A stretch of 64,000 bases of DNA from Gammaproteobacteria bacterium (GCA_965205525.1 OZ242171.1:89993-153992), one strand, 5' to 3'. Counted from the stretch's first letter, positions 2-33,558 are shown. Made by a program: numbers and translations. Notes: generated by a model from the letters alone, not told the origin.

Positions 2-865
2 AACTCCTTATCTGTTTACAGAGTGGATGCTGCAGAGGAGGATCTTGAAAGTGTGGGCCCCAGGCTCATGGGAGAGAATCCATTCCACATAACCGCTACC
101 GAGGAAGTACTGATTGCCAGTAATAATGTTCAAATTTCCCTTTTTCAAATAAATGAGGACGATACCATCAGCGGCCCTGTCAGCAGTCTACAAGGCTTCT
201 CACCGAACAGTGTGGCGGCCAGTCCCGCTGGCGGTCTAGTGTTTACCAACTCTGTTCTCAGTTCTTTTCTAGGAGTTTGGCAGGTGCTGGGAATCCCCCG
301 GGTGCCGGCGGGGCAGGAAGTGCGGGTGATGGTGAATGCAGAGTCGGCGCTGGACACCGCCCTGACCGTGATGGTGCAGGCGAGGCAGGGCAGCCGGGTT
401 CGCATGGCAGCGGCGACTCTGATGCCGTCAGATACTCAGGCGGAGGCCGTGTTCTCGGGGAGTGATCTGGGTCAGGGCGAGTGGATATTTTCGGCATCGG
501 TGCCGGCAGATATGGCAGATATTGTGGATGTATCGGCGGCCCGGGCGACACTGCGGATTAGCGGTCCGCTTGTCAGGCTGGAAAACCTGTCGGGCGTAAT
601 ACCAGAAGGAGCAGATCTGAATATCAGAGTGAGCACGGAGGGAATGGTTCCTGTGGCAGGGGATACGGAGGTGACCTTGCAGGCAGCGCAGGAGGGCGCT
701 CAGCCTCGGACGGCGATGGGATTATTACGGGAGGGGCAGACATCGGTCACGGTGACCTTTGCCGGCAGGGAATCCCTGATCGAGGGTGACTGGGTCTTGT
801 CAGCATCATCAATCCTGCCCACAGATGCAAATTCTACGCTTGCAGTGACCGTCGGGCCGCCTTTG
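2..865 (+). repeat. Module unit 1.0 (partial): last propeller blades (divergent, AT-richer subtype), domain A and domain B.
   Basis: It contains the near-invariant domain-A string GGTGCCGGCGGGGCAGGAAGTGCGGGTGATGGTGAATGCAGAG starting at about 301. Its VWQVLGIPRV junction is identical to that of unit 4.1. Confidence 0.8.
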
Positions 866-3800: not shown

Positions 3801-6583
3801 GCAGCCGGGTCAGCATGGCAGCGGCGACTCTGATGCCGTCAGACACTCAGGCGGCGGCCGTGTTCTCGGGGCGTGATCTGGGCCAGGGCGAGTGGATATT
3901 TTCGGCATCGGGGCTGACAGATACGGCAAAACTGCGCATTGGCAATCCGCTTATCAGGCTGGAAAACCTGTCGGGCAGAATACCAGAAGGGGCAGATCTG
4001 AATATCAGAATAAGCACGGAGGGACACCCTGTGCTGGAGGATGCACAGGTGACCTTGCGGGCAACGCAGGAAGGCGCTCAGCCTCGGACCGTGATGGGAT
4101 TATTACAGGAGGGGGAGACATCGGTTACGGTGACATTTGCTGGCGAAAATGCCCTGACCGGGGGAGACTGGGTCTTGTCGGCAGAATCATCAATCCTGTT
4201 CACAGATGCAAATTCTGTGCTTACAGTGACCGTTATACCGCTGCCTAAGCTGACCCTCTCGGTAGACCAGGGAGTGTCCTCGGGGGAGATGAGGCTGGTC
4301 CAGACTGATAACAAACGCCTTGCAAGTGGAACTGAAGAAGGGCTTGCTGTCAGTCCAGACGGCAGGTGGCTGCTTGCCAGCGGCGGCGGCGGCATCACGG
4401 TCTGGGAGATAGACAGCGTCAGGGGCATGGTCACCCAGAGCAGTGATCGTATGGGTGCTGGCCTGGGGGGCCGTGGCCTGGCAGTGAGCCGAGACAGCAA
4501 TTTTGTGTTTACGTCGGATGGTGCCAGTACTAGCACTATCAGTGTCTGGCGCCTGGATGCCGATGATGGCGGACTGGAGGAAGTGGCAAAGTACACAGGG
4601 GGAGGAACAGATGCTGCAGAGAACACCGTCAGAGGGCTGAGCTCTGTTTGGGATGTCGTGCTGAGCCCGGATGACCGCCTGCTGTTTGTGACGAGCGCGG
4701 GGGTGTCAGATAATGGCGCCCTCAGTGTGTGGAGTGTAAACACTTCCGGCACCCTTGTTCAGACCGATGTGCACCCTGCCGGGGATTCGAACACAGAGGG
4801 CTTGAACGCAATTGCCGGTGCCGCCGTGACCCCGGATGGCCGCCTGCTGTTTGCAGGGTCAACGCGAGACAGGAGGCTCAGCCTCTGGCGCGTGAATGCT
4901 GAAGCGTCTACGGTTTCCTTTGTGAGGACTATTCCCGACAATATCGGGCTGCGCAGGCCCCGGGTTGTGACCCTCGGCCCCGCCGGCCGTTTTCTGTTTG
5001 TGTCCAACTCGATTAATTCGAGTGACAATGATTCAGATTCACTGTCTGTTTACAAAGTGAATGCTGCAGAGGAGGATCTTACACTTGTGGACTCCTATGG
5101 CGGGTTAGGGGTTACCTTCGGCCTGGCCGTCACCAGGGAAGTGCTGGCATTGGTCTCAAGAAGTCAGAGCAATGTCACTCTTTGGCAGAGAAATGCTTCC
5201 GGCACCCTCAGTTTTGTCAGCAGGCATGCTTCAGGCAGAGCGCATGGCCTGGCGGCCAGTCCGGCCGGCGGTCTGGTGTTTAGCAGTTCAAACAGTGGGT
5301 CTGAAGGCATCAGCGTCTGGCGGGTGCAGGGAATCCCGCGGGTGCCGGCGGGGCAGGAAGTGCGGGTGATGGTGAATGCAGAGCCGACGCTGGGCTCTGC
5401 CCTGACCGTGACGGTGCAGGCGCGGCAGGGCAGCCGGGTCAGCACGGCAACGGCGACTCTGATGCCGTCAAACACTCAGGCGGAGGCCGTGTTCTCGGGG
5501 AGTGATCTGGGCCCGGGCGAGTGGATATTTTCGGCATCGGTGCCGGCAGATATGGCAGATGTTGCGGATGTATCGACGGCCCGGGCGACACTGCGCATTA
5601 GCGGTCCGCTTGTCAGTTTGGAGATGACTGGCGGAAGTGCCATCGTTGCCTCGGACGGGATGATAACGCTTATCCTGCGCGTGATGCCGGCACTATCCTC
5701 CACGGTCATGGTGACCGTGGCGGTGACCGATGAAGACAACAATACGATATCAGAGCAGCTGGAGGCTCTGTCCTCTTCCCTGCGGCTCACTTTCCGCGCC
5801 AGTGATTTGGGAACAGGCCGTCTGCGCTTTACTGCCCGGGGGCCGGCAGGAGTATTAGAAGACAGCGAAGCCGAGGTGACCGTGCTGGTGGACACTGCTG
5901 CTGGTGTCGTTCTGTCTGCAAATCCCGAGGAGGATGTCTTTCCGGGCGATGAGGTGCGCCTGTCGGCAGAAGTACTCTCCGGGTCAGACCTGGCCGGGAT
6001 AGATGTCGTGCTGGAGGTGGCAGTTGCACCTCCCGATGGAAGCACGCGCAGCAATGTCCTGATACCAGTGTCGGCTGAAACCTCTACGGGCACCCTGACC
6101 TTTATCCCGGATGCAGTGCCGGGCACTTGGAATTTCAACGTAATAGAGAGCGATGGGATAAGCGTATCTGCGACACTTACAGTGATGGTGGCGGCAGTCG
6201 TGCCCCTGCCCCTGGACTTCAATAATCCATCGGACGGGGTAAGCGCAGATGACCTGGTGCTGCTTCTGCGCTATGAGAGGCTGTGTGCGGGGGGAGATTC
6301 CCGGCCGCTGCCGGCCAATTGCTCTGCCCTCGGTTCCGAGGCACTGGCGGCTGGACTTGCCTTTGACAGTTCTTCCGACCGGCTGGCAGATCTGCAGAAT
6401 GTCCAGCTGCCGGATGTGACCGGCACCGGTATCGGCAGCGTGCAGACACTGGCCATACTGCTGCAGGCCTTGGCAAATGTCCAAGACGAATTGCTTCTTC
6501 CCGCCGCTGCTTCATCCGCCGAGGCCGAGCAGGCTCGCGATGCGCGGCTTCGCATTATCCGGCAGCTCCTGGGACGGGAATAG
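2..6583 (+). CDS. Giant secreted repeat protein, paralog 1 (5' end cut by window edge). It alternates 7-bladed lactonase/YVTN-like beta-propeller modules with Ig-like beta-sandwich domains and ends in the conserved C-terminal cassette with a dockerin-like segment.
   Basis: The frame is open from position 2: NSLSVYRVDAAEEDL matches the internal blade motif DPLSVY.VNAAEE, so the GTG at 23 is not the start. There are four propeller modules, the first partial. Their blade motifs are AVSPDGRWLL, AVSRDS.LVF, VVLSPD.RLLFVTS, AAVTPDGRLLFAGS, VVTLGP.GRFLFVS, GLA.TREVLAVAE and LAASPAGGLVFS. The stop codon is TAG at 6581-6583. An uninterrupted 6.5-kb ORF cannot arise by chance. Confidence 0.85.
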   Translation, partial: NSLSVYRVDAAEEDLESVGPRLMGENPFHITATEEVLIASNNVQISLFQINEDDTISGPVSSLQGFSPNSVAASPAGGLVFTNSVLSSFLGVWQVLGIPRVPAGQEVRVMVNAESALDTALTVMVQARQGSRVRMAAATLMPSDTQAEAVFSGSDLGQGEWIFSASVPADMADIVDVSAARATLRISGPLVRLENLSGVIPEGADLNIRVSTEGMVPVAGDTEVTLQAAQEGAQPRTAMGLLREGQTSVTVTFAGRESLIEGDWVLSASSILPTDANSTLAVTVGPPLIRLTLSVDQGVSSGEMRLVQTDTKPGLGTEEGLAVSPDGRWLLAGGISGRGFIRTLEIDSVRGIATPVELYTGLGGRSLAVSRDSSLVFASDNAFMSTISVWRLNADDGSLEGVAQYTGGGTDAAGNTVRGLISTHDVVLSPDDRLLFVTSNGESNSNNGALSVWRVSPSGTLVQTDVHVSGGGADTEGLNAIAGAAVTPDGRLLFAGSFYDSGFLDHSTLGIWRVNAEASAVSFVRTLSDRRMLRRPRVVTLGPSGRFLFVSSQVGADAETDPLSVYEVNAAEENLASVASYGEDISGDAIGLAVTREVLAVAEFTQGSVALWQRNDNGTLRFASRHDSASPVSLAASPAGGLVFSSSSSNDGSVGISVWRVQGIPRVPAGQEVRVMVNAESALGSALTVMVQARQGSRVSMAAATLMPSDIQAEAVFSGRDLGQGEWIFSASVPTDMADVADVSTARATLRIGGPLVRLENLSGVIPEGADLNIRISTEGHPVLEDAEVTLRATQQGAQPRTVMGLLREEQAEVTVTFAGRQSLTEGDWVLSAESSVLSTDENSGLDVTVRPPLPRLTLSVNQGVSSGEMRLVQTDANTGLPAGDSEGLAVSPDGRWLLASGGGRITVWEIDSVRGIVTQRSTEMGTGLGGRGLAVSRDSRLVFTSDRASTSTISVWRLNADNGGLEEVAKYTGGETDAAENTVRGLTVTHAVVLSPDERLLFVTSNGRLDDEGVPFGGALSVWNVNPSGTLVQTNVHVSAGAEDTEGLNQIAGAAVTPDGRLLFAGSFHDFGSFDRSTLGIWRVNAEASTVSFVRTRQDTRMLRRPRVVTLGPAGRFLFVSSQVLNDAQIDPLSVYRVNAAEEDLVSLASYGNDIEGRTIGLAATREVLAVAEEDGGGGGVSLWQRNNDGTLRFVRRHASFRPIGLAASPAGGLVFSSSNEGSEGIIVWQVQGIPRVPAGQEVRVMVNAEQAPDSARTVMVQARQGSRVSMAAATLMPSDTQAAAVFSGRDLGQGEWIFSASGLTDTAKLRIGNPLIRLENLSGRIPEGADLNIRISTEGHPVLEDAQVTLRATQEGAQPRTVMGLLQEGETSVTVTFAGENALTGGDWVLSAESSILFTDANSVLTVTVIPLPKLTLSVDQGVSSGEMRLVQTDNKRLASGTEEGLAVSPDGRWLLASGGGGITVWEIDSVRGMVTQSSDRMGAGLGGRGLAVSRDSNFVFTSDGASTSTISVWRLDADDGGLEEVAKYTGGGTDAAENTVRGLSSVWDVVLSPDDRLLFVTSAGVSDNGALSVWSVNTSGTLVQTDVHPAGDSNTEGLNAIAGAAVTPDGRLLFAGSTRDRRLSLWRVNAEASTVSFVRTIPDNIGLRRPRVVTLGPAGRFLFVSNSINSSDNDSDSLSVYKVNAAEEDLTLVDSYGGLGVTFGLAVTREVLALVSRSQSNVTLWQRNASGTLSFVSRHASGRAHGLAASPAGGLVFSSSNSGSEGISVWRVQGIPRVPAGQEVRVMVNAEPTLGSALTVTVQARQGSRVSTATATLMPSNTQAEAVFSGSDLGPGEWIFSASVPADMADVADVSTARATLRISGPLVSLEMTGGSAIVASDGMITLILRVMPALSSTVMVTVAVTDEDNNTISEQLEALSSSLRLTFRASDLGTGRLRFTARGPAGVLEDSEAEVTVLVDTAAGVVLSANPEEDVFPGDEVRLSAEVLSGSDLAGIDVVLEVAVAPPDGSTRSNVLIPVSAETSTGTLTFIPDAVPGTWNFNVIESDGISVSATLTVMVAAVVPLPLDFNNPSDGVSADDLVLLLRYERLCAGGDSRPLPANCSALGSEALAAGLAFDSSSDRLADLQNVQLPDVTGTGIGSVQTLAILLQALANVQDELLLPAAASSAEAEQARDARLRIIRQLLGRE
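866..2563 (+). repeat. Module unit 1.1: propeller, Ig-like domain A and Ig-like domain B (about 1.7 kb).
   Basis: The unit begins at the junction [PI]RLTLSV[DN]QGV.SGEMRLVQTD. The domain-A string recurs at about 1999. Domain B begins with GGPLVRLENLSG. Confidence 0.85.
2564..4243 (+). repeat. Module unit 1.2: propeller + A + B.
   Basis: It has the same junction (PRLTLSVNQGVSSGEMRLVQTD) and the same A and B strings. It also contains the in-frame (GGT)5 run at 3530-3544. Confidence 0.85.
4244..5599 (+). repeat. Module unit 1.3: propeller + A only; it joins directly to the 3' cassette.
   Basis: The unit starts at PKLTLSVDQG. After RATLRISGPLVS the sequence switches to LEMTGGSAIVASDG, which is the start of the 3' cassette. 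Confidence 0.8.
5600..6583 (+). repeat. Conserved 3' cassette, copy 1: two Ig-like domains, a dockerin-like double segment and a charged helical tail.
   Basis: The landmarks are LEMTGGSAIVASDGMITLILRVMPALSSTV..., LDFNNPSDGVSADDLVLLLRY, LPDVTGTGIGSVQTLAILLQAL and AEAEQARDARLRIIRQLLGRE*. The same block of about 980 nt ends all four genes. Confidence 0.9.
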
Positions 6584-6876
6584 AGAGCAGTATCTGTTCT
6601 TCATGCCCTGAAACCCACTTTGCGATCCATTTCTTGCCTGCGATACTTATAGGTGCGCCCCTTGCAAACCGGAATGGCACTAGTAACTAGTAAAGGGGGA
6701 GGGGGGGATACAATTGCCGCAAGCAGGTGACCTGCAGCCCTGCTTGGATTCCTCCTGCTGCAGCACAGTTGTTTATGTTAGATAGTCCAAAACTTGGCAT
6801 GCTGGTGCGGCAGATAAGAATAGTACTGCTGCTGCCTCTGCTGCTGCTTGCCTCTGCCTCTGTTCTGGCACAGGCG
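6584..6876 (+). repeat. Conserved 5' cassette, copy 1: intergenic leader plus signal-peptide coding region.
   Basis: The string AGAGCAGTATCTGTTCTTCATGCCCTGAAACCCACTTTGCGATCCATTTCTTGCCTGCGAT...GGAATGGCACTAGTA...G-tract...CTGCAGCCCTGC...GCTGCAGCACAG is repeated at 13174 and 17496. Confidence 0.9.
6695..6707 (+). repeat. Homopolymeric G tract G5-A-G7 in the leader of paralog 2.
   Basis: Read directly from the sequence: taaaGGGGGaGGGGGGGata. Confidence 0.95.
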
Positions 6877-9800
6877 CCCAGGCTGACCCTCTCGGTGGAC
6901 CAGGGAGTGCCCTCAGGGGAGATGAGGCTGGTCCAGACTGATGTCCACTTTTTTACAAGTGGAAGTAATGTAGGAGGGATTGCTGTCAGTCCAGACGGCA
7001 GGTGGCTGCTTGCCAGCAGCGGCAGCAGCATCACGGTCTGGGAGATAGACAGCGCCAAGGGCATTGTCACCCAGAGAAGTGCTCAATCGAGTGCTGGCCT
7101 GAGAGGCAACCTGGCAGTGAGCCGAGACAGCAGTCTTGTGTTTGCGTCGGATCGTGCCAGTAACAGCACTATCACTATCAGTGTCTGGCGCCTAAATGCC
7201 GATGATGGCGGACTGGAGGAAGTGGCAGAGTACGCAGATGGAGGTCTAGATGCTGCAGGGAACACCATCAGAGGGCTGTTTGTCACCCGTGGTTTCACGC
7301 TGAGGCTCGTGCTGAGCCCGGATGACCGCCTGCTGTTTGTGACGAGCAGAGCGGGGTCAAATAATGGCGCCCTCAGTGTGTGGAGTGTAAACCCTTCCGG
7401 CACCCTTGTTCAGACCGATGTGCATCTCTCTGCCGGGGCTTCGGATACACAGGGCTTGAACCGGATTGCCCGTGCCGCCGTGACCCCGGACGGCCGCCTG
7501 CTGTTTGCAGGGTCATTCCACGGTTCTCATTCATTTTTCAGCAGCACGCTCGGCATCTGGCGTGTGAATGCTGAAGCGTCTACGGTTTCCTTTGTGAGGA
7601 CTCTTTCCGACAGACGCATGCTGCGCAACCCCCGGATTGTGACCCTCGGCCCGGACGGCCGTTTTCTGTTTGTGTCCAACCTGATTAGAGGTGCTGAAAT
7701 AGATCCACTGTCTGTTTACGAAGTGAATGCTGCAGAGGAGAATCTTGCAAGTGTGGCCTCCTATGGCGAGGACATATCGGGGGATACCATCGGCTTGGCC
7801 GCCACCAGAGAAGTGCTGGCAGTGGCCGAAGTTGATCAGCGTAGTGTCGCTCTTTGGCAGAGAAATGATAACGGCACCCTCAGTTTTGCCAGCAGGCATG
7901 ATTCAGTCAGACCGATCCTCCTGGCGGCCAGTCCGGCCGGCGGTCTGGTGTTTAGCACCTCAAATTCACTTGATGGGCCTGACGGTATCACCGTCTGGCA
8001 GGTGCAGGGAATCCCGCGGGTGTCGGCGGGGGATGACGTGCGGGTGATGGTGAATGCAGCGCAGGCGCTGGGTTCTGCCCTGACCGTGACGGTGCAGGCG
8101 AAGCAGGGCAGCCGGGTCAGCACGGCAACGGTGACTCTGATGCCGTCAGATACTCAGGCGGCGGCCGTGTTCTCGAGGAGTGATCTGGGCCAGCTGAGCC
8201 AGCTGGGCCAGGGCGAGTGGATATTTTCGGCATCGGTGTCGGCAGATATGGCGGATATTGCGGATGTATCGGCCGCCCGGGCGACACTGCGCATTAGCGG
8301 TCCGCTTGTCAGGCTTTCAAACCTGTCGGGCGTAATACCAGCAGGAGCAGATCTGAATATCAGAGTGAGCACGGAGGGAATGGTTCCTGTGACAGGGGAT
8401 AGGGAGGTGACCCTGCAGGCAGCGCAGGAAGGCGCTCGGCCTCGGACGGTGATGGGATTATTACGGGCGGGGCAGGCAGAAGTTACGGTGACCTTTGCCA
8501 GCAGGGAATCTCTGACCGAGGGTGACTGGGTCTTGTCAGCATCATCAATCCTGTCCACAGATGAAAATTCTGTGCTTGCAGTGACCGTCGGGCCGCCTTT
8601 GACCCTCTCGGTGAACCAGGGAGTGCCCTCAGGGGAGATGATGCTGGTTCAGACTGATGCTAACACCGGCGTTGCAAGTGGAACTGGAGAAGGGATTGCT
8701 GTCAGTCCAGACGGCAGGTGGCTGCTTGCCAGCGGCGGCGGCGGCATCACGGTCTGGGAGATAGACAGCGTCAGGGGCATTGTCACCCAGAGAAGTGCTC
8801 ATACGGGTGCTGGCCTGGGAGGCCGTGGCCTGGCAGTGAGCCGAGACAGCAGTCTTGTGTTTGCGTCGGATCGTGGGTCTTCCATCAGTGTCTGGCGCCT
8901 AGGTGCTGATGATGGCAGACTGGAGGAAGCGGCAAAGTATACAGGGGGAGGAACAGATGCTGCAGGGAACACCATCAGAGGGCTGGCTAGCATTTGGGAT
9001 GTCGTGCTAAGCCCGGATGACCGCCTGCTGTTTGTGACGAGCAACAGGGTGTCAAATAATGGCACCCTCAGTGTGTGGAGTGTAAACGTTTCCGGCACCC
9101 TTGTTCAGACCGATGTGCATGTCTCTGCCGGAGCCTCGGATACAGAGGGCTTGAACCGGATTGCCGGTGCCGCTGTGACCCCGGACGGCCGCCTGCTGTT
9201 TGCAGGGTCATTCTACGATTATGGTTCATTAGACAGCAGCACACTCGGCATCTGGCGTGTGAATGCTGAAGCGTCTACGGTTTCCTTTGTGAGGACTCTT
9301 TCCGACAGACGCATGCTGCGCAGACCCCGGGTTGTGACCCTAGGCCCCTCCGGCCGTTTTCTGTTTGTGTCCAGCCAGGTTTTTAATAACGCTCAAACAG
9401 ATCCACTGTCTGTTTACAAAGTGAATGCTGCAGAGGAGAATCTTGCAAGTGTGGCCTCCTATGGCGAGGACATATCTTTGGAAACCGTCGGGCTGGCCGC
9501 CACCAGAGAAGTGCTGACAGTGGCCGAACTTGCGCGGATAAGTGTTGGCAGTAGTGTCGCTCTTTGGCAGAGAAATGCTTCCGGCACCCTCAGTTTTGTC
9601 AGCAGGCATGCTTCAGAAAGCCCGGTTGGCCTGGCGGCCAGTCCGGCCGGCGGTCTAGTGTTTTCCAACTCACGCGACGGGTTTTTCATAACCGTCTGGC
9701 AGGTGCAGGGAATCCCGCGGGTGCCAGCGGGGCAGGAAGTGCGGGTGATGGTGAATGCAGAGCAGGCGCTGGGCTCTGCCCTGACCGTGACGGTGCAGGC

Positions 9801-12800
9801 GAGGCAGGGCAGCCGGGTCAGCACGGCAACGGCGACTCTGATGCCGTCAGATACTCAGGCGGAGGCTGTGTTCTCGGGGCGTGATCTGGGCCAGGGCGAG
9901 TGGATATTTTCGGCATCGCTGCTGACAGATACGGAAAATATTGTGGATTTGCCGACAGTCCGGGCGACACTGCGCATTGGCAGTCCGCTTATCAGGCTTT
10001 CAAACCTGTCGGGGGCAATACTGCAAGGAGCAGGTCTGAATATCAAAGTGAGTACGGAGGGACACCCCGTGCTGGAGGATGCAGAGGTGACCCTGCGGGC
10101 AACGCTGCAGGAAGGCACTCAGCCTCGGGCGGTGATGGGATTATTACGGGAAGGGCAGACATCGGTTACGGTGACCTTTGCTGGCGAAAATGCCCTGACC
10201 GTGGGTGACTGGGCCTTGTCAGCAGAATCATCAATCCTGTCCACAGATACAAATTCTGTGCTTGTAGTGACCGTCGGGCCGCCTTTGCCCAGGCTGACCC
10301 TCTCCCTGCAGGAGACTGCAGAGCCAGAGGTGCCGGCAGGCAGTACTTTGGGGATTACGGTAATGGCGGATCGTCCCCTGATGCAGGACCTGACGGTGGC
10401 GGTACAGGCGGTTCGTACCGTTACAGCACCGCCGACGGTGATGACAGCAACGGTGACGACTCAGCTGTTTGCAGGAGAGGAGATGGGAAGGGTACTCTTT
10501 GAAGGGGAGAATGTACTGTCTCCGGGCCAATGGGTCCTTACGATTGCGGAGGTCCTGCCCGAGGACTCTGCCGAAGTATCCACATCCACTCAGCAGCTGC
10601 AGGTGAGGGTAGGACCATCAGCCCTTGGCCTGTCGGCGCCGATGGGTCTGTTCCAAGGGCAGGAGGCGGCGATTGAGGTAAATACGGAGGTGGCGCTGGG
10701 GGTGGAGGTGCGTGTCATGGTGACGGCAACCCATGCATCTACTCCAACCATAACGGCATCAGCCGCCGCCGTACTTGGGCCCCGCACACTTGCCGCCGAA
10801 GCGAGGTTCCCTGCGAACATGCTGAGCCTGGTGAGAGAGGGGACTTGGAATTTTGAGATTACTGCGGCGACGCCCTCTGTGCTGATGACAGATACGGAAG
10901 AGTTTCCCCTAGTGGACTTCACAGAGACGACGGTAACACTGCAAGTGACAGTGCCGAGAGAGCCGACTCTTTTCCTGGAGTTGCCGCCGCAGCCGGTGGA
11001 CCCGGCCCAGCCTGTGTCTATCCGCCTGCAGAAGAGCACGACTATAAGTGAAAGGCTGACCGTGGATATAACGGCAATGCGGCCGTTCGGCGAAAGGACA
11101 CTCACCAGCACAGCAACGGCAATGCTTTCGTCTTCTGACACAATGGCGACGGCGGTATTTGGCCCGGGAGCACTCTCTGCCGGCAGATGGACCCTGACGG
11201 CGAGTGTGAGACCGCCCGGGGCAGTGCCGGTTTTCCCTCCTACGGCAACGATGACGGTGCGCTCTCCCCTGCTTCGCCTGCAGCGGCTGGGGCCGGCTTC
11301 GGTGGCAGCGGGCACCCGGGTCGCGGTGAGGGTGGAAGCGGAGGCCATGCCGGAGGATGAGGGGCTCGGTGTGAGGGTCATCGCGCGCCAGGCGATGCGA
11401 GCGGATAGAGAGAGGAGCGCCGTGCTGGGATCTCAGTCTGATTTCTCTGCCGATGTGGAGTTCACTTCGCTGCCGCCCGGGGAATGGATGCTGACGGCGG
11501 AGGCAGAGCGGCCTGATGCATTCCGAACGGAGAATGCTCGGGACACGGTCACCGTAGAGCCCGCTGTCCTGACCCTGACCCCTGTGCTGGAAAGGGTGCC
11601 GGCAGGGGAGTCGGCGCGTCTTATCCTGGGCAGTGTCGTGCCTCTCGGCGTGGCTGTGAATCTAAATGTGGTGGCGGAGCCGGTCTCTCCGTCATTTTTG
11701 CCACAGATGACAGCTGTAAATCTGGACGCGGCTTCAACCTCCACAATAGTCGTGTATGACCCTGGCGAACTGGCTCCGGGAATATGGAATTTTAATGTGC
11801 AGGTGATGGATGCGGCTGTCCGGACGGCGGCAGATGTGTCAATGGCGACCGCGACACTGCGGATTGCTGCTCCCCTTGTCAGGCTTTCTAATCTGTCGGG
11901 CGAAATACTGCAGGGAGCAGAGCTGAATATCAGGGTGAGCACGGAGGGAATGGTTCCTGTGGCAGGGGATGCGGAGGTGACCCTGCGGGCGACGCTGCAG
12001 GAAGGCACCCAGCAGCGGACGGTGACGGGAAGATTGCTGGAGGGGCAGACATCGGTCACGGTGACCTTTGCCGGCGAAAATGCCCTCACTGAGGGTGACT
12101 GGACCGTGTCGGCGGAGACAGCATCAACGCTGCTGCAGACGGATGCAAATCTTTCTTCTCTGACAGTGATTGTCGGGCCGCCGCCCCGGCTCCTTTTGGA
12201 GCGGACTGGCGGAAGTACCCTCGTTGCCTCGGACGGGATGATAACGCTTATCCTGCGCCTGATGCCAGCACTATCCTCCACGGTCACGGTGACCGTGGCG
12301 GTGACCGATGAAGACAACAATACGATATCAGAGCAGCAGGTAGCTCTGTCCTCTTCCCTGCAGCTCACTTTCAGCGCCAGTGATTTAGGAACAGGCCACC
12401 GGCGCTTTACTGCCCGGGGGCCGGCAGGAGTATTGGAAGACAGCGGAGCCGAGGTGACCGTGCAGGTGGTCACTGTTGTTAGTGTCGTTCTGTCTGCAAA
12501 TCCCGAGGAGGATGTCTTCCCGGGCGATGAGGTGCGCCTATCGGCAGAAGTACTCTCCGGGTCAGACCCGGCCGGGATAGATGTCGTGCTGGAGGTGGCA
12601 GTTACAGCTCCCGATGGAAGCATGCGCAGCAATGTCCTGATTCCAGTGTCGGCTGAAACCTCTACGGGCACCCTGACCTTTATCCCGGATGCAGTGCCGG
12701 GCATCTGGAATTTCAACGTATTCAACGTAATAGAGAGCGATGTGATAAGCGTATCTACGACACTTATAGTGATGGTGGCGGCAGTCGTGCCCCTGCCCCT

Positions 12801-13173
12801 GGATTTCAATGATCCATCGGACGACGATGTAAGCGCAGATGACTTGGTGCTGCTTCTGCGCTATGAGAGGCTGTGTGCAGAGGGAAGTTCCCCGCCGTTG
12901 CCGGCCAGCTGCACTGACCTCGGTTCCGAGGCACTGGCGGCTGGACTTGCCCTTGAAAGTTCTCCCGACCGGCTGGCAGATCTGCAGAATGTCCGGCTGC
13001 CGGATGTGACCGGCACTGGTGTCGGCAGTGTGCAGACACTGACTATACTGCTGCAGGCCTTGGCAAATGTCCAAGACGAATTACTTCTTCCCGCCGCTGC
13101 TTCATCCGCCGAGGCCGAGCAGGCTCGCGATGCGCGGCTTCGCATTATTCGGCAGCTCCTGGGACGGGAATAG
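6775..13173 (+). CDS. Giant secreted repeat protein, paralog 2. Order: signal peptide, two propeller+Ig+Ig units, five divergent Ig-like domains, one extra Ig (B) domain, conserved C-terminal cassette.
   Basis: The signal peptide is MLDSPKLGMLVRQIRIVLLLPLLLLASASVLAQA, with cleavage predicted before PRLTLSVDQG. I placed the start at ATG 6775 because the homologous position is ATG/GTG in all three complete genes. ATG 6799 (MLVRQIR) is an alternative. No clear Shine-Dalgarno precedes either. The ORF-track start at 6727 lies in the conserved leader hairpin and was rejected. Confidence 0.8.
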   Translation: MLDSPKLGMLVRQIRIVLLLPLLLLASASVLAQAPRLTLSVDQGVPSGEMRLVQTDVHFFTSGSNVGGIAVSPDGRWLLASSGSSITVWEIDSAKGIVTQRSAQSSAGLRGNLAVSRDSSLVFASDRASNSTITISVWRLNADDGGLEEVAEYADGGLDAAGNTIRGLFVTRGFTLRLVLSPDDRLLFVTSRAGSNNGALSVWSVNPSGTLVQTDVHLSAGASDTQGLNRIARAAVTPDGRLLFAGSFHGSHSFFSSTLGIWRVNAEASTVSFVRTLSDRRMLRNPRIVTLGPDGRFLFVSNLIRGAEIDPLSVYEVNAAEENLASVASYGEDISGDTIGLAATREVLAVAEVDQRSVALWQRNDNGTLSFASRHDSVRPILLAASPAGGLVFSTSNSLDGPDGITVWQVQGIPRVSAGDDVRVMVNAAQALGSALTVTVQAKQGSRVSTATVTLMPSDTQAAAVFSRSDLGQLSQLGQGEWIFSASVSADMADIADVSAARATLRISGPLVRLSNLSGVIPAGADLNIRVSTEGMVPVTGDREVTLQAAQEGARPRTVMGLLRAGQAEVTVTFASRESLTEGDWVLSASSILSTDENSVLAVTVGPPLTLSVNQGVPSGEMMLVQTDANTGVASGTGEGIAVSPDGRWLLASGGGGITVWEIDSVRGIVTQRSAHTGAGLGGRGLAVSRDSSLVFASDRGSSISVWRLGADDGRLEEAAKYTGGGTDAAGNTIRGLASIWDVVLSPDDRLLFVTSNRVSNNGTLSVWSVNVSGTLVQTDVHVSAGASDTEGLNRIAGAAVTPDGRLLFAGSFYDYGSLDSSTLGIWRVNAEASTVSFVRTLSDRRMLRRPRVVTLGPSGRFLFVSSQVFNNAQTDPLSVYKVNAAEENLASVASYGEDISLETVGLAATREVLTVAELARISVGSSVALWQRNASGTLSFVSRHASESPVGLAASPAGGLVFSNSRDGFFITVWQVQGIPRVPAGQEVRVMVNAEQALGSALTVTVQARQGSRVSTATATLMPSDTQAEAVFSGRDLGQGEWIFSASLLTDTENIVDLPTVRATLRIGSPLIRLSNLSGAILQGAGLNIKVSTEGHPVLEDAEVTLRATLQEGTQPRAVMGLLREGQTSVTVTFAGENALTVGDWALSAESSILSTDTNSVLVVTVGPPLPRLTLSLQETAEPEVPAGSTLGITVMADRPLMQDLTVAVQAVRTVTAPPTVMTATVTTQLFAGEEMGRVLFEGENVLSPGQWVLTIAEVLPEDSAEVSTSTQQLQVRVGPSALGLSAPMGLFQGQEAAIEVNTEVALGVEVRVMVTATHASTPTITASAAAVLGPRTLAAEARFPANMLSLVREGTWNFEITAATPSVLMTDTEEFPLVDFTETTVTLQVTVPREPTLFLELPPQPVDPAQPVSIRLQKSTTISERLTVDITAMRPFGERTLTSTATAMLSSSDTMATAVFGPGALSAGRWTLTASVRPPGAVPVFPPTATMTVRSPLLRLQRLGPASVAAGTRVAVRVEAEAMPEDEGLGVRVIARQAMRADRERSAVLGSQSDFSADVEFTSLPPGEWMLTAEAERPDAFRTENARDTVTVEPAVLTLTPVLERVPAGESARLILGSVVPLGVAVNLNVVAEPVSPSFLPQMTAVNLDAASTSTIVVYDPGELAPGIWNFNVQVMDAAVRTAADVSMATATLRIAAPLVRLSNLSGEILQGAELNIRVSTEGMVPVAGDAEVTLRATLQEGTQQRTVTGRLLEGQTSVTVTFAGENALTEGDWTVSAETASTLLQTDANLSSLTVIVGPPPRLLLERTGGSTLVASDGMITLILRLMPALSSTVTVTVAVTDEDNNTISEQQVALSSSLQLTFSASDLGTGHRRFTARGPAGVLEDSGAEVTVQVVTVVSVVLSANPEEDVFPGDEVRLSAEVLSGSDPAGIDVVLEVAVTAPDGSMRSNVLIPVSAETSTGTLTFIPDAVPGIWNFNVFNVIESDVISVSTTLIVMVAAVVPLPLDFNDPSDDDVSADDLVLLLRYERLCAEGSSPPLPASCTDLGSEALAAGLALESSPDRLADLQNVRLPDVTGTGVGSVQTLTILLQALANVQDELLLPAAASSAEAEQARDARLRIIRQLLGRE
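6877..8595 (+). repeat. Module unit 2.1: propeller + A + B.
   Basis: It starts immediately after the signal-peptide AQA site with PRLTLSVDQGVPSGEMRLVQTD. Its A domain is a variant (VSAGDDVRVMVNAAQ). Confidence 0.85.
8596..10287 (+). repeat. Module unit 2.2: propeller + A + B.
   Basis: The junction is PLTLSVNQGVPSGEMMLVQTD. The A string lies at about 9720. Confidence 0.85.
10288..11865 (+). repeat. Block of five divergent Ig-like domains of about 100 aa each (E1-E5).
   Basis: The block starts PRLTLSLQETAEPEVPAGSTL. Every domain ends with the same pattern as A and B: ...G.W.L[TS]A ... [VL].V. E1 and E2 recur in paralog 4 at 25168-25839. E3-E5 occur only here. Confidence 0.7.
11866..12189 (+). 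repeat. Extra domain-B copy preceding the 3' cassette of paralog 2.
   Basis: The sequence AAPLVRLSNLSGEILQGAELNIRVSTEGMVPVAGDAEVTLRATLQEG is homologous to all other B domains. Confidence 0.8.
12190..13173 (+). repeat. Conserved 3' cassette, copy 2.
   Basis: It is homologous over its full length to 5600-6583. It carries a 9-nt tandem duplication (TTCAACGTA twice) that gives NFNVFNV. Confidence 0.9.
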
Positions 13174-13457
13174 AGAGCAGTATCTGTTCTTCATGCCCTG
13201 AAACCCACTTTGCGATCCATTTCTTGCCTGCGATCTTATAGGTGCGCTCCTTGCAAACTGGAATGGCACTAGTAAAAGGGGGGGGGGGGGAGCAAAAATA
13301 CCCGAATAAGGTGAGCTGCAGCCCTGCCTGGGTTCCTCCTGCTGCAGCACAGCCGTTTGTGTTTGACAGGCCAAAACTTGGCATGCTGGTGCGGCAGATA
13401 AGAATAGTACTGCTGCTGCCTCTGCTGCTTGCCTCTGTCTCTGTTCTGGCACAGGCG
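13174..13457 (+). repeat. Conserved 5' cassette, copy 2.
   Basis: It shares the sequence of 6584-6876. It differs in having one ACTAGTA copy instead of two, an uninterrupted G13 tract, and a divergent stretch of about 30 nt after the tract. Confidence 0.9.
13278..13290 (+). repeat. Homopolymeric G tract G13 in the leader of paralog 3.
   Basis: Read directly from the sequence: agtaaaaGGGGGGGGGGGGGagc. Confidence 0.95.
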
Positions 13458-17495: not shown

Positions 17496-17784
17496 AGAGC
17501 AGTATCTGTTCTTCATGCCCTGAAACCCACTTTGCGATCCATTTCTTGCCTGCGATTCTTATAGGTGCGCCCCTTGCAACCGGAATGGCACTAGTAACTA
17601 GTAAAAGGGGGAGGGGGGATACAATTGCCGCAAGCAGGTGACCTGCAGCCCTGCTTGGATTCCTCCTGCTGCAGCACAGTTGTTTATGTTAGATAGTTCA
17701 AAACTTGGCATACTGGTGCGGCAGATAAGAATAGTACTGTTGCTGCCTCTGTTGCTTGCCTCTGTCTCTGTTCTGGCACAGGCG
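17496..17784 (+). repeat. Conserved 5' cassette, copy 3.
   Basis: It is almost identical to 6584-6876. The G tract is one G shorter, and the ATG has changed to ATA at 17710-17712. Confidence 0.9.
17607..17618 (+). repeat. Homopolymeric G tract G5-A-G6 in the leader of paralog 4.
   Basis: Read directly from the sequence: gtaaaaGGGGGaGGGGGGata. Confidence 0.95.
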
Positions 17785-20700
17785 CCCAGGCTGACCCTCT
17801 CGGTGGATCAGGGAGTGCCCTCAGGGGAGCTCCGCCTAGTTAGGAAATCTGCCGCAAGTGGATCTAGCAGAAATCTTGGAGGACATGCCGTCAGTCCAGA
17901 CGGCAGGTGGCTGTTTTACGCTGGCAGTAATTTAGAGGTCTGGGAGATAGACAGTGCCAGAGGCATTGTCACGCAAAGGATGTCTTCTCCGCAGTCTGGC
18001 TTCTTTAGCTTCCTGGCAGTGAGCCGAGACAGCAGTCTTGTGTTTGTGCTGAATCGCCAAAATAACCAGATCACTGTCTTTCGCCTGAATGCCGATGATG
18101 GCAGACTGGAGGAAGTGGCAAAGTACACAGAGGGAGGAACAGATGCTGCAGGGAATACCGTCAGAGGGCTGACTAATGCTTCTGATGTCGTGCCAAGCCC
18201 GGATGGCCGACTGCTGTTTGTGACGAGCGGCGGGGATTCAGGGACTACCGGAGGCGCCCTCAGTGTGTGGAGTGTAAACTCCACCAGCACCCTCACTCAG
18301 ACCGATGTGCATGTCTCTGCCGGGGCTTCGGATACAGAGGGCTTGGAGAATGCTGCCGGTGCCGCCGTGACCCCGGACGGCCGCCTGCTGTTTGTAGGGT
18401 CATCCCACAATTTAGATTCATTAGACAACAGCACGCTCGGCATCTGGCGTGTGAATGCTGACGCGTCTACGGTTTCCTTTGTGAGGACTCTTTCCGACAG
18501 ACGCATGCTGCGCAGACCCCGGGTTGTGACCCTCGGCCCCGCCGGCCGTTTTCTGTTTGTGTCCAGCCGGGTTAGTGCAGATGCTGCAACAGATCCACTG
18601 TCTGTTTACGAAGTGAATGCTGCAGAGGAGAATCTTGCAAGTGTGGCCTCCTATGGCGAGGACGATGACATATTGGGGAATACCATCGGCCTGGCCGCCA
18701 CCAGAGAAGTGCTGGCAGTGGCCGAATTTGATCAGGGTAGTATCGCTCTTTGGCAGAGAAATGATGACGGCACCCTCCGCTTTGCCAGCAGGCATGATTC
18801 AGCCAGCTCGACTGGCCTGGCGGCCAGTCCGGCTGGTGGTCTGGTGTTTGTCAACTCATACCAAGAACGTTTCATAACTGTCTTGCAGGTGCTGGGAATC
18901 CCCCGGGTGCCGGCGGGGCAGGAAGTGCGGGTGATGGTGAATGCAGAGTCGGCGCTGGGCTCCGCCCTGACCGTGATGGTGCAGGCGAGGCAGGGCAGCC
19001 GGGTCAGCATGGCAGCGGCGACTCTGATGCCGTCAGATACTCAGGCGGAGGCCGTGTTCTCGGGGAGTGATCTGGGCCAGGGCGAGTGGATATTTTCGGC
19101 ATCGGTGCCGGCAGATATGGCAGATGTTGCGGATGTATCGACGGCCCGGGCGACACTGCGGATTGGCGGTCCGCTTGTCAGGCTGGAAAACCTGTCGGGC
19201 GCAATACCAGAAGGAGCAGATCTAAATATCAGAGTAAGCACGGAGGGGGCCCCCGTGCTGGGGGATGCGGAGGTGACCCTGCGGGCAGCGCAGGAAGGCG
19301 CTCGGCCTCGGACGGTGATGGGATTATTACGGGAAGGGCAGACATCGGTCACGGTGACCTTTGCCGGCAGGGGATCCCTGACCTTGGGTGACTGGGTCTT
19401 GTCAGCATCATCAATCCTGTCCACAGATGAAAATTCTACGCTTGCAGTGACCGTCGGGCCGCCTTTGCCCAGACTGACCCTCTCAGTGGACCAAGGAGTG
19501 CCATCAGGGGAGCTCCGCCTTAGGAGATCTTCTGCCGTAAGAACAAATTTAATTGGCAGTAAACGACTTGCCGTCAGTCCAGACGGCAGGTGGCTGCTTG
19601 CCAGCACCAGCTTCCGCATCACGCTCAGGGAGATAGACAGCGCTAGGGGCATTGTCGCGCGAAGAATGTCTTCTGCGAGTCCTGGCGCATCTCGCGGCCT
19701 GGCAGTGAGCCCAGACAGCAGTCTTGTGTTTGTGCCGAATGAATCAAATAACCAGATCACTGTCTTTCGCCTGAATGCCGATGAAGGCAGACTGGAGGAA
19801 GTGGCAAAGTACACAGAGGGAGGAGAAGATGCTGCAAGGAATCGCATCAGCGGGCTGGCTAATGCTGATGATGTCGTGCCAAGCCCGGATGGCCGCCTGC
19901 TGTTTGTGACGAGCAGAGGGGCTGCCAACGCCCTCAGTGTGTGGAATGTAAACCCTTCCGGCACCCTTGTTCAGACCGATGTGCATGTCTTTGCCGGAGC
20001 TTTGGGTAACCAGGCTGCCGGTGCCGCCGTGACCCCGGACGGCCGCCTGCTGTTTGTAGGGGGGGCTGGTACGCTCAGCATCTGGCGTGTGAATGCTGAA
20101 GCGTCTACGGTTTCCTTTGTGAGGACTCTTTCCGACAGACGCAGGCTGCGCAGACCCTCGGTTGTGACCCTCGGCCCCGCCGGCCGTTTTCTGTTTGTGT
20201 CCAGCCAGTTTGCTGCAGATTCTGCAACAGATCCACTGTCTGTTTACGAAGTGAATGCTGAAGAGGAGAATCTTGCAAGTCTGGCCTCCTATGGCGATGA
20301 CATAGAAGGGTCTGCCAGAGGTCTGGCCGCCACCAGAGAAGTGCTGGCAGTGGCCGAATTCAAATTGTCGCAGGGTAGTATCGCTCTTTGGCAGAGAAAT
20401 GCTTCCGGCACCCTCAGTTTTGTCAGCAGGCATGATTCACGCCTCCCGGTTGACCTGGCGGCCAGTCCGGCCGGCGGTCTGGTGTTTATCAGTTCAAATC
20501 GTTCGTCTGAAGGCATCAGCGTCTGGCAGGTGCAGGGAATCCCGCGGGTGCCGGCGGGGCAGGAAGTGCGGGTGATGGTGAATGCAGAGCCGGCGCCGGA
20601 CTCTGCCCTGACCGTGACGGTGCAGGCGAGGCAGGGCAGCCGGGTCAGCACGGCAGAGGCGACTCTGATGCCGTCAGGCACTCTGGCAGTGGCCGAGTTC

Positions 20701-23700
20701 CCGGGGAGTGATCTGGGCCCGGGCGAGTGGATATTTTCGGCATCGGTGTCGGCAGATATGCCGGCAGATATGGCAGATGTTGCGGATGTATCGGCGGCCC
20801 GGGCGACACTGCGGATTAGCGGTCCGCTTATCAGGCTGGAAAACCTGTCGGGCGAAATACTGCAGGGAGCAGATCTGAATATCAGAGTGAGCACGGAGGG
20901 AATGGTTCCTGTGGCAGGGAATGCGGAGGTGACCCTGCGGGCAACTCAGGAAGGTGCCCAGCCTCGGATGGTGGTGGGATTATTACGGAAGGGGCAGATA
21001 TCATTTACGGTGACCTTTGCCGGCGGATCAGTCCTGACCGCGGGTGACTGGGTCTTGTCGGCAGAATCATCAATCCCCCTGCTCCGCACAGATTCAAGTT
21101 CTTTCCTTGTAGTGACCGTCAGACCGCCGCCGCTTATCAGGCTGGAAAACCTGTCGGGCGAAATACTGCAGGGAGCAGATCTGAATATCAGAGTGAGCAC
21201 GGAGGGAATGGTTCCTGTGGCAGGGAATGCGGAGGTGACCCTGCAGGCAACCCAAGAAGGCGCCCAGCCTCAGACGGTGATGGGATTATTACGGGAGGGG
21301 CAGACATCGGTTACGGTAACCTTTGCCGGCGAGAAAGCCCTGACCGAGGGTGACTGGATCTTGTCGGCAGAATCATCAATTCTGCTGTCCACAGATGCAA
21401 ATTCTACCTTTGCAGTGACCGTCGGACCTCCTTTGCCTAGGCTGACCCTCTCAGTGGACCAGGGAGTGCCTTCGGGGGAGATGAGGCTGGTCCAGACTGA
21501 TGCTACCAGCCTTCTAGATTCATTAATATTTACAGGAGGGCTTGTTGCTGTCAGTCCAGACGGCAGGTGGCTGCTTGCCAGCGGCGGCGGCCGCATCACG
21601 CTCAGGGAGATAGACAGCGCTAGGGGCATTGTTACCCCGGTAGCAACTTATCGGGGTGCTGGCCTGGGAGGTAATAGTCTGGCAGTGAGCCGAGACAGCA
21701 GTCTTGTGTTTACGTCGGATAGGAACACCAGTACTAGCACTATCAGTGTCTGGCGCCTGGATGCCGATGATGGCAGACTGGAGGAAGTGGCAAAGTACAC
21801 AGAGGGAGGAACAGATGCTGCAGGGAACACCGTCAGAGGGCTGATTTTCACCCATGGTGTCGTGCTGAGCCCGGATGACCGCCTGCTGTTTGTGACGAGC
21901 AGGGGGGAGCCAGACAGTGCCGGAGGCGCCCTCAGTGTGTGGAGTGTAAATCCCTCCGGCACCCTTGTTCAGACCGATGTGCATATCTCTGCTGGGGCTT
22001 CGGATACAGAGGGCTTGAACCGGGCTGCCGGTGCCGCCGTGACCCCGGACGGCCGCCTGCTGTTTGTAGGGTCATTCTACGATTCTGATTCATTAGACAG
22101 CAGCACACTCGGCATCTGGCGTGTGAATGCTGAAGCGTCTACGGTTTCCTTTGTGAGGACTCTTTCCGACAGACGCATGCTGCGAAGACCCCGGGTTGTG
22201 ACCCTCGGCCCGGACGGCCGTTTTCTGTTTGTATCCAGCCAGGTTGATAATGATGCTGCAATAGATCCACTGTCTGTTTACGAAGTGAATGCTGCAGAGG
22301 AGAATCTTGCAAGTGTGGCCTCCTATGGCGATGACATATCGGGGGATACCATCGGCCTGGCCGCCACCAGAGAAGTGCTGGCAGTGGCCGAATCTTCGCT
22401 GGATGGTGTCGCTCTTTGGCAGAGAAATGATAACGGTACCCTCAGTTTTGCCAGCAGGCATGATTCAGCCAGCCCGGCTGGCCTGGCGGCCAGTCCAGCC
22501 GGCGGTCTGGTGTTTAGCGGCTCATCCGATAGGTCTGTCGGCATCACCGTCTGGCAGGTGCAGGGAATCCCGCGGGTGCCGGCAGGGCAGGAAGTGCGGG
22601 TGATGGTGAATGCAGAGCCGGCGCCAGACTCTGCCCTGACCGTGATGGTGCAGGCGAGGCAGGGCAGCCGGGTTCGTATGGCAGCGGCGACTCTGATGCC
22701 GTCAGATACTCAGGCGGAGGCAGTGTTCTCGGGGAGTGCTCTGGGCCAGGGCGAGTGGATATTTTCGGCATCGGTGCCGGCAGATATGGCAGATAGGGCA
22801 GATAGGACGGCTCTGTCGGCAGCCCGGGCGACACTGCGCATCGGCGGGCCGCTTATCAGGCTTTCAAACCTGTCGGGCGTAATACTGCAGGGAGCAGATC
22901 TGAATATCAGAGTAAGCACGGAGGGACACCCCGTGCTGGAGGATGCAGAAGTGACCCTGCGGGCAACTCAGGAAGGCGCCCGGCCTCGGATGGTGGTGGG
23001 ATTATTACGGAAGGGGCAGATATCATTTACGGTGACCTTTGCCGGCGGATCAGTCCTGACCGCGGGTGACTGGGTCTTGTCGGCAGAATCATCAATCCCC
23101 CTGCTCCGCACAGATTCAAGTTCTTTCCTTGTAGTGACCGTCAGACCGCCGCCGCTTATCAGGCTGGAAAACCTGTCGGGCGCAATACCAAAAGGAGCTG
23201 ATCTGAATATCAGAGTAAGCACGGAGGGAATGGTTCCTGTGGCAGGGAATGCGGAGGTGACCCTGCAGGCAACCCAAGAAGGCGCCCAGCCTCAGACGGT
23301 GATGGGATTATTACGGGAGGGGCAGACATCGGTTACGGTGACCTTTGCTGGCGAGAAAGCCCTGACCGAGGGTGACTGGATCTTGTCGGCAGAATCATCA
23401 ATTCTGCTGGGCACAGATGCAAATTCTATGCTTGCAGTGACCGTCAGGCTGCCCAGACTGACCCTCTCGGTGGACCAGGGAGTGCCGTCAGGGGAAATGA
23501 GGCTGGTCCAGACTGATGTTAACACCGACCTTATGAGTAGATCAGTATATCCAGAAGGGCTTACTGTCAGTCCAGACGGCAGGTGGCTGCTTGCCAGCGG
23601 CGGCGGCATCACGGTCTGGGAGATAGACAGCGTCAGGGGCATTGTCACCACGGTAGAAACTTATCGGGGTACTGGCCTGGGAGGTAATGGTCTGGCAGTG

Positions 23701-26820: not shown

Positions 26821-26894
26821 AGAGCAGTAAGCGAAGAGCTGCTGTTTAGCGCATCCTATTGTTTTCCGGAGCGGAATAGGAAGCACAGAGGTGA

Positions 26895-28523: not shown

Positions 28524-28702
28524 AAATTTCTTGTGCCTGTGTGTGCGTCTGGCGGGGAATGAGGGGCCGAGGCCTGCAAACCTGCTCTTTCCTGCCCGAG
28601 AGTCTCAGTATCCGCACTTGGCTCTTGCCGGGTGCACACGACCGAAAATATAGCAGGGACTATAGCAGAGGGAGATTGCGCCCGCTAGCGCCTGAGTGAA
28701 AT

Positions 28703-28779
28703 TGGCGCGCCCGGCAGGATTTGAACCTGCGACCTCTGGCTTCGGAGGCCAGCGCTCTATCCAACTGAGCTACGGGCGC
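28703..28779 (-). tRNA. tRNA-Arg, anticodon CCG, with encoded CCA.
   Basis: The reverse complement GCGCCCGTAGCTCAGTTGGATAGAGCGCTGGCCTCCGAAGCCAGAGGTCGCAGGTTCAAATCCTGCCGGGCGCGCCA folds as a cloverleaf. The acceptor stem is GCGCCCG/CGGGCGC. The anticodon stem is CTGGC/GCCAG with loop CTCCGAA. The T arm is GCAGG-TTCAAAT-CCTGC. Confidence 0.95.
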
Positions 28780-28798
28780 ATATATGGTGCAGACCCCA

Positions 28799-28826
28799 AT
28801 TATAGGGAGCACGACCCCGATTGCAT
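28799..28826 (-). promoter_or_regulatory. Putative sigma70 promoter for tRNA-Arg.
   Basis: On the minus strand there is a perfect TATAAT at 28804-28799, which is 19 nt upstream of the mature tRNA 5' end. A weak -35 (ATGCAA, 28826-28821) lies 16 nt upstream of it. Confidence 0.4.
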
Positions 28827-28904
28827 ATTTTCGGCCATGATGCCCGTCGTGTTTTCGGGGGCCGTGCCGGTATCACCCTGCGCTCCCCGACAAAAGATGC
28901 GGGC

Positions 28905-30092: not shown

Positions 30093-30106
30093 GTCGGCGG
30101 CACTTC

Positions 30107-32929: not shown

Positions 32930-32934
32930 GTCAC

Positions 32935-33519: not shown

Positions 33520-33558
33520 AGTCTGTGTATTGTGATGGAGTTTTCCTGCGTTCTATGC

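Follow-up and report, generated by a model that had tools for sequence, protein, structure and literature searches.

Length-variable G tracts beside a -10-like box precede paralogous giant genes in an uncultured gammaproteobacterium: a candidate contingency locus

To our knowledge, promoter-located homopolymer switches have been documented almost entirely in cultured pathogens. In Mycoplasma hyorhinis, each vlp paralog carries a poly-A tract in its promoter spacer, and these tracts produce combinatorial ON/OFF expression together with size variation. Promoter-spacer homopolymers also occur at porA and opc of Neisseria meningitidis, and the Neisseria pilE G4 element is built from separate G-runs. 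In the Bordetella fim2, fim3, fimX and fimN promoters a fim box is conserved and a C-stretch separates the activator region from the -10 element (Willems et al. 1990, as related in PMC1891110); the length of this stretch differs between paralogs and species, with some alleles interrupted (C6TC3, C9TC8; PMC1891110). Upstream of the Moraxella catarrhalis uspA1 open reading frame (ORF), a G(n) tract changes the mRNA level (PMC7302503), and in Haemophilus influenzae the 5′-untranslated region (UTR) of hmw1A and hmw2A carries heptamer repeats, with a hairpin whose G-rich arm is processed by RNase III (PMC12721329). Here we describe what appears to be the same promoter-homopolymer architecture in an uncultured gammaproteobacterium with distant nearest relatives.

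The stretch analysed here, 64,000 nt of a 1,998,239-bp contig (GCA_965205525.1, OZ242171.1:89993-153992; the window), begins with four tandem giant genes on the plus strand. All are made of modules of about 1.7 kb that combine Lactonase-type 7-bladed beta-propellers with Ig-like stretches, and the number of modules varies between genes. Giant gene 1 (23-6583), whose 5′ end lies outside the window, is followed by giant gene 2 (P0002; 6799-13173, 2124 aa), giant gene 3 (P0001; 13383-17495, 1370 aa) and giant gene 4 (17710-26820, about 3036 aa). The presumed start of giant gene 4 (17710-17712) reads ATA in place of the canonical ATG found in the five other copies described below; one GTG lies two codons downstream and another, in frame, at 17638, and the gene may use an alternative start or be poorly translated. 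Common to the giant proteins are a signal peptide and a C-terminal module of about 260 aa bearing the dockerin-like motif D-x-S-A-D-D-L-V-L-L-L-R-Y. This module had no match in Pfam or the PDB, its domain profile found no relatives in JGI metagenomes and a 73-aa N-terminal query found no match in the protein database; the family is rare, with seven database matches. One of its members, an 817-aa paralog elsewhere on the same contig (P0006), has the same signal peptide and C terminus and is devoid of propellers. Downstream of the array are housekeeping genes: NDH2 with a cyclic nucleotide (cNMP)-binding domain, hemN, metW, gshB, argH, hemD, ahcY and 6S RNA (56407-56588, minus strand, 77.7 bits), the last being, with a tRNA (28706-28779, minus strand), the only Rfam match in the window. 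The best GTDB matches of the NDH2 protein are 52-57% identical and come from a BD1-7 clade bacterium, Parashewanella, Ca. Porifericomitales and Pseudomonadales metagenome-assembled genomes (MAGs), sponge-associated taxa among them; judged by these matches, the organism is absent among GTDB species. The NDH2 gene itself contains a G8 run (27570-27577, C8 on the coding strand) that has the same length in a sister strain, where the encoded protein is identical. A Ca. Porifericomitales MAG has a G11 run (L009:11974-11984) shortly past its NDH2 homolog, where ORF 11633-12028 meets ORF 12028-12582; this is a phase-variable gene of the frameshift type or else an assembly error at a homopolymer.

Three leaders on the plus strand separate the giant genes: copy 1 (6584-6798) spans the interval between the giant gene 1 stop codon and the giant gene 2 ATG, copy 2 (13174-13382) lies upstream of giant gene 3 and copy 3 (17496-17709) upstream of giant gene 4. 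By alignment and blastn, copy 1 is 95% identical to copy 3 and 88% identical to copy 2. The leaders form the centre of a larger conserved cassette that comprises, within the aligned stretch, about 370 nt of the upstream gene's 3′ end, the leader of about 215 nt and about 150 nt of the following gene; in total, about 1 kb at the 3′ end of the upstream giant gene is conserved, and the first 150 nt or so of the following gene code for the signal peptide MLVRQIRIVLLLPLLL...AQA. In the same alignment columns of this cassette, each leader contains a G tract: G5AG7 in copy 1 (6695-6707; G5 at 6695-6699, A at 6700, G7 at 6701-6707), an uninterrupted G13 in copy 2 (13278-13290) and G5AG6 in copy 3 (17607-17618; G5 at 17607-17611, A at 17612, G6 at 17613-17618). 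The heptamer ACTAGTA precedes the tract twice in copy 1 (6679-6692, starting at 6679 and 6686 and containing TAGTAA), once in copy 2 (13268-13274) and twice in copy 3 (17590-17603, starting at 17590 and 17597), so that the elements read ACTAGTA ACTAGTA AA G5 A G7, ACTAGTA AAA G13 and ACTAGTA ACTAGTA AAA G5 A G6, respectively. These tracts, coordinates, heptamer counts and shared position, read directly and with a regular-expression check, agree to the base with the preliminary description of the locus. Its placement of the tract 70-80 nt upstream of the first usable start needs correction: from the 3′ end of the tract it is 91-92 nt to the signal-peptide ATG (6799 and 13383; equivalent position 17710 in copy 3) and only 19 nt to the first mechanical GTG of the ORF list (6727, 17638).

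The G tract is not a random feature of this DNA. A homopolymer census puts G13 as the longest run of any base in the window, with a runner-up of length 8; an iid model predicts about 0.02 G-runs of at least 13 nt, and G-runs of at least 7 nt are depleted (observed 6, expected 16). The interrupted G5AG7 occupies the same 13 positions as G13 and differs from it by one G-to-A substitution. Because copies 1 and 3 are each other's closest relatives, the second heptamer and the interrupting A each trace to one shared event. The heptamer difference, which had been described as variable copy number, is an ordinary single 7-nt duplication (one copy against two) and not a slipping repeat array. The tetranucleotide CTAG is strongly under-represented in the window as a whole (65 seen, about 226 expected), and five of the six ACTAGT sites in the window fall inside the three leaders.

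Three further leaders came from contigs L001, L002 and L003 of the ENA metagenome assembly ERZ25069326. Their tracts are G14 with one heptamer (L001:3744-3757), G13 preceded by GGAAGGGA (L002:9897-9909) and G8 (L003:9975-9982), lengths that are uncertain by 1-2 nt because coverage of these contigs is 4-5x and their giant genes contain frameshifts. L001 shows synteny with the array's right end in the window; an exact-sequence look-up of the NDH2 protein led to this contig alone, and those of the giant gene 3 protein and MetW found no match. Over 7.4 kb of housekeeping flank it is 99.28% identical to the window (window 26830-34196, L001:10648-18035); by contrast, the giant-gene array is only 80-92% identical and differently arranged (window 1-26820, L001:1-10483). 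The drop in identity coincides exactly with the stop codon of the last giant gene, and the number and size of the giant genes differ. This combination of a near-identical flank and a rearranged array identifies L001 as a conspecific strain with a reshuffled array, and the giant-gene array is a strain-level hypervariable region. Given such rearrangement, the two strains share no strict ortholog pair of leaders, and differences in tract length are paralogous or allelic. An exact 24-mer of an invariant block of the leader had no match in the genome and metagenome contigs searched, which confines the leader to this lineage. The sister strain also encodes still larger family members, whose called products of 6,890 and 6,149 aa extend past the ends of their loci (L002:1-8979, L003:12825-22718), and a 142-aa fragment of Leu/Phe-tRNA-protein transferase (aat) lies between two giant genes at L002:9216-9644. 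An 18-nt insert coding for LPETT(I/T) occurs near the C terminus of the window's last giant gene (about 26740-26760), of the last gene of L001, of a giant gene of L002 (about 8890-8910) and of P0006. It is found only in giant genes with no leader behind them, whether array-terminal or, like P0006, solitary, and is absent from giant genes 1-3, a distribution suggesting that all tandem junctions stem from one fusion event at CAGYA microhomology.

Across the two strains the six leaders are mutually 82-95% identical and have their tract at a conserved position but not of conserved length (G5AG7, G5AG6, G13, G14, G13, G8). Length variation, as originally claimed, is borne out among the six leaders; the interrupting A and the second heptamer of copies 1 and 3, each one shared event, do not count as independent variation. 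As the six leaders descend from one duplicated unit, the presence of a tract in each is not independent evidence of function. G/C runs of about 8-9 or more are regarded as slippable, and G13 in copy 2 and the G14, G13 and G8 tracts of the sister strain are runs of this kind; copies 1 and 3, with pure G runs of 5-7, are borderline. Tracts of G13-G14 are well above the length at which G/C runs slip. Data from Bordetella (PMC1891110) and Moraxella (PMC7302503) support this placement, which also agrees with general knowledge of such runs. The A interruption leaves copies 1 and 3 with pure runs of only 5-7 G, which probably makes them much more stable than copy 2.

Alignment of the six leaders resolves a fixed architecture around the tract. 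Upstream lies a 25-nt block, TTGCGATCCATTTCTTGCCTGCGAT, identical in 6/6 leaders (6620-6644, 13210-13234 and 17532-17556 in copies 1, 2 and 3, plus strand); it holds the direct repeat TGCGAT-N12-TGCGAT and is a candidate regulator site. Between 1 and 3 nt past the 3′ end of the G-run, all in one alignment column, stands a -10-like hexamer: TACAAT in copy 1 (6709-6714, 1 nt past the tract), AAAAAT in copy 2 (13294-13299), TACAAT in copy 3 (17620-17625) and in L003, TATAAT in L001 and TAAAAT in L002. In a position weight matrix (PWM) scan this hexamer scores highest of all -10-like sequences in five leaders, copy 1 included, and ties for the top score in the sixth; the critical A2 and T6 are retained despite changes at position 3 and in the neighbouring bases, and the copy 2 hexamer is the weakest of the six. 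In the six leaders the hexamer stands at a fixed 83-84 nt from the ATG, but its distance from the invariant block is 64, 63, 59, 60, 68 and 61 nt; essentially all length variation therefore falls in the linker formed by the heptamer, A-run and G-run, and indels are nearly absent from the leader outside the tract region. The tract is intergenic, and its position relative to the -10-like hexamer falls within the range of places (promoter, 5′ UTR or 5′ coding region) that contingency-locus repeats occupy. The preliminary description had put it in the leader. As a conserved positional feature of the leader it stands, and because it lies directly 5′ of the best -10-like hexamer, it may belong to the promoter and not to a transcribed leader.

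A porA- or vlp-type promoter would also have a -35 element, and no convincing one was found in any leader copy. The only -35-like hexamer near the tract is TAGTAA, within ACTAGTAA, with three of six matches and a spacer to the -10-like hexamer of 18 nt (copy 2, L001) or 15 nt (copies 1 and 3); a consensus promoter scan called no promoter at the tract. Several other roles for the region were considered and rejected or judged unlikely. A sigma-54 promoter at the TGGCAC just 5′ of the heptamer, judged on the six-leader alignment as GG-N10-GC (TGGCAC-N5-TTGCW), lacks the -12 GC in five of six leaders, and its -24 GG is mutated in L002. An upstream ORF with the G-run as its Shine-Dalgarno sequence, 22-23 codons long from a TTG or ATG 6 nt past the tract, exists in only three of six leaders; L001 reads ATG CCG TAA at this point, and copy 2 and L002 read ATA. 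The frame of the GTG 19 nt past the tract is open in 6/6 leaders, but an N-terminal extension from it is unlikely, as substitutions there are mostly non-synonymous and the signal peptide begins at the ATG. Placement of the poly-G within a coding sequence, in an ORF from GTG 13242, applies to copy 2 only and would bury the signal peptide.

The family has a homolog of only 28% identity (P0007) on a 2.1-Mb contig with a GC content of 56% (L017), where it belongs to a second tandem array placed between an smc fragment and ligA. The intergenic cassettes of this distant lineage cannot be aligned to the leaders of the window, yet they carry poly-C on the coding strand (C5, C8 and C13 in the three cassettes; L017:4815-4870, 5655-5700, 13020-13060), about 90 nt (C13) or 105 nt (C8) from the presumed start of the next gene, and they show an inverted repeat of G5-6 with the poly-C. 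The same geometry on the opposite strand favours a function at the level of DNA. In a second assembly of the same species (L018, 32x coverage), the C8, G7 and C13 lengths are identical (L018:5889-5896, 13242-13254), and identical consensus lengths in two close strains provide mild evidence against free-running drift. The two assemblies are about 99.7% identical upstream of C13, and right behind it divergence rises abruptly, from about 0.3% to over 15%; the C13 cassette coincides with a recombination boundary. The smc 3′ fragment in L017 is a duplicate and, like the aat fragment in L002, points to array expansion having carried flanking housekeeping pieces along.

We tentatively propose, at somewhat less than even confidence, that the G tract is a slippage-prone spacer in a promoter/leader module that makes transcription initiation depend on tract length. 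Such a module would consist of the invariant upstream block as candidate activator site, the variable linker of ACTAGTA, A-run and G-run, and a -10-like box, TAnAAT, whose distance from the ATG is constant, and every paralogous giant gene would carry its own. Gain or loss of a G at replication would alter the spacing and helical phase of the upstream elements relative to the -10 box, and initiation at that one gene would rise or fall, leaving the population heterogeneous in which giant secreted beta-propeller protein is made. Copy 2, with its pure G13, would be the actively switching copy, and the A-interrupted copies 1 and 3 would be largely locked. The tract, its conserved position, the confinement of length variation to the linker and the adjoining -10-like box are observed features of these leaders; that the box works as a promoter, that tract length affects expression and that slippage is ongoing we infer from them. 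Against the promoter reading, the copy with the pure G13 has the weakest -10 hexamer.

In L002 and L003 the leader has no preceding paralog, and both contigs have in its place a common upstream stretch, about 45 nt long, whose hexamers are close to consensus but oddly spaced (TTGAYA-N14-TATAMT). Right after these hexamers, at CAG(C/T)ATCTGTT, the sequence becomes homologous to the tandem leaders, and in the tandem copies the 3′ end of the upstream giant gene (...GGA CGG GAA TAG AGAGCAGTA) has taken the place of the promoter-like element. A scan of the window found no terminator-like hairpin between giant genes. With this element in L002 and L003 only and no terminators in between, internal genes might be read through from upstream; the element also implies that the whole leader could be 5′ UTR, with the tract about 105 nt inside the transcript. 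The swap of the promoter-like element for coding sequence and the missing terminators speak for a neutral mutational hot spot, an inherited G-run that slips with no effect on expression while the genes are co-transcribed from a promoter before the array, and so do the missing canonical -35, the origin of all leaders as copies of one unit and the lax maintenance of the pure run (A in copies 1 and 3, G8 in L003). We regard this account as unlikely, if deserving serious weight: homopolymers are otherwise depleted, yet a G-rich run of at least 8 persists in 6/6 leaders, indels are confined between two conserved elements with the downstream geometry fixed, and an analogous poly-C occurs in the non-alignable cassette of the distant lineage. 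A long transcribed leader would also suit a post-transcriptional role, in which the tract, in a 5′ UTR or operon spacer, pairs with UUCCUCCUGCUGC in a hairpin around a CAAGCAGG/CCUGCUUG stem and its length tunes mRNA processing, stability or read-through, as the hmw 5′-UTR hairpin (PMC12721329) and the uspA1 G(n) tract (PMC7302503) exemplify. RNAalifold does pair the G-run with the conserved CU-rich UUCCUCCUGCUGC in 6/6 leaders and predicts the inner 8-bp stem, but covariation amounts to a single compensatory pair, the inner stem is broken in copy 2 and folding from tract to ATG is no better than dinucleotide shuffles in any of the six leaders (z -1.0 to +0.75). These z scores near zero, together with the lack of any Rfam match in the leader at the gathering score, speak for a role at the DNA level and against one of RNA structure. 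A change of a single G would hardly affect such a hairpin, and the coding-strand poly-C of the second lineage makes a common RNA mechanism unlikely; we rate post-transcriptional control as decidedly improbable.

The reshuffled arrays raise a further alternative, that the G-run stimulates gene conversion or unequal crossing-over among paralogs as the Neisseria pilE G4 element does. Mosaic arrays that differ strongly between conspecific strains with a 99.3% identical flank, the jump in divergence right after the C13 cassette of the second lineage and the varying number of 1.7-kb module repeats are all compatible with it. A pilE-type G-quadruplex element was rejected, however, because four G3 runs and their loops take up at least 15 nt, more than the single run of 13-14 G, or G5AG7, provides, and the long conserved coding ends and 1.7-kb modules already provide sufficient homologous substrates, so that a recombinational role for the tract itself has in our judgement very little chance of being correct. 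Hardly any credence at all goes to the idea that homopolymers miscalled in sequencing or assembly account for the length differences: the frameshifted, thinly covered ERZ25069326 contigs and the low accuracy of long-read consensus in long G/C runs would allow it, but the A interruption, the 7-nt duplication and a range from G8 to G14 are not homopolymer miscounts, and the three window copies all lie on one contig. Among these accounts the spacer reading, tentative as it is, is the one we carry forward.

If the spacer reading is right, the giant proteins would be the organism's variable interface with host, phage or predator, and read-level tract lengths would offer a simple assay for giant-gene regulation in metagenomes. 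In size, the genes preceded by the tract rank with the largest of the genome: 1,370 to over 3,000 aa in the window, and as many as 6,890 aa in the sister strain. Between strains whose flanks are 99.3% identical, their differences are drastic. They encode giant repeat proteins with a signal peptide and a content that differs sharply between strains; the display supposed in the preliminary description is suggested by the signal peptide only. A broader scenario, to which we give a doubtful but not negligible chance, is a Vlp-like combinatorial display of giant secreted beta-propellers in uncultured, possibly host-associated gammaproteobacteria, with a hypermutable G:C tract for each paralog and reshuffling of the 1.7-kb modules, that would have arisen twice (poly-G and poly-C). 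If such two-lineage display were true, contingency-locus biology would extend well beyond the classical mucosal pathogens.

Compared with described systems, the layout most resembles that of Bordetella fim. In both, several paralogs are each preceded by the same conserved element, a promoter in Bordetella and a candidate promoter here, in which a G:C homopolymer (about 7-20 nt) separates the -10 or -10-like box from a conserved or activator region farther upstream. The homopolymer varies in length among paralogs, strains and species, for the leaders here as a difference between paralogous or allelic copies, and interrupted alleles exist; in Bordetella the effect is on transcription, through spacing. 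The fim-type order of invariant 25-nt block, linker with G-run and TAnAAT recurs in 6/6 leaders, a likeness that is functional analogy and not homology. The two systems share no sequence homology in their leaders, and the genes differ, fimbrial subunits there and giant secreted beta-propeller/Ig-repeat proteins here; fim is activator-dependent, whereas the invariant block is a candidate site known from its sequence; and the giant genes form a head-to-tail array whose internal copies are perhaps also read through. The vlp system offers a parallel in its cluster of paralogs with conserved 5′ regions and signal peptides, divergent, size-variable repetitive bodies and a promoter-region homopolymer for each paralog. 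Its poly-A lies between mapped -35 and -10 elements and serves small lipoproteins of an AT-rich mollicute, in contrast to the poly-G, with no clear -35, of this 60% GC gammaproteobacterium. Like the leaders described here, uspA1 and hmw have a repeat ahead of an ORF that encodes a large secreted or surface protein with a modular, strain-variable body, and control there is graded at the mRNA level; the uspA1 tract, however, lies 29 bp upstream of its ORF, and hmw requires at least 11 heptamers and an RNase III hairpin, against one or two heptamers and a hairpin no better than chance here. At porA and opc, expression level follows spacer length, which is set by a run of G or C inside the core promoter spacer; the -35 and -10 elements are recognizable there and the spacers measure 16-18 nt, whereas only the weak -35-like TAGTAA is present in these leaders. 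On this comparison the locus plausibly fits a candidate contingency locus, closest to the fim-type or vlp-type arrangement of one tract per paralog. It would plausibly be of a known kind, the promoter or leader homopolymer switches of paralogous surface or secreted genes, and unusual in its organism and in the size of its cargo.
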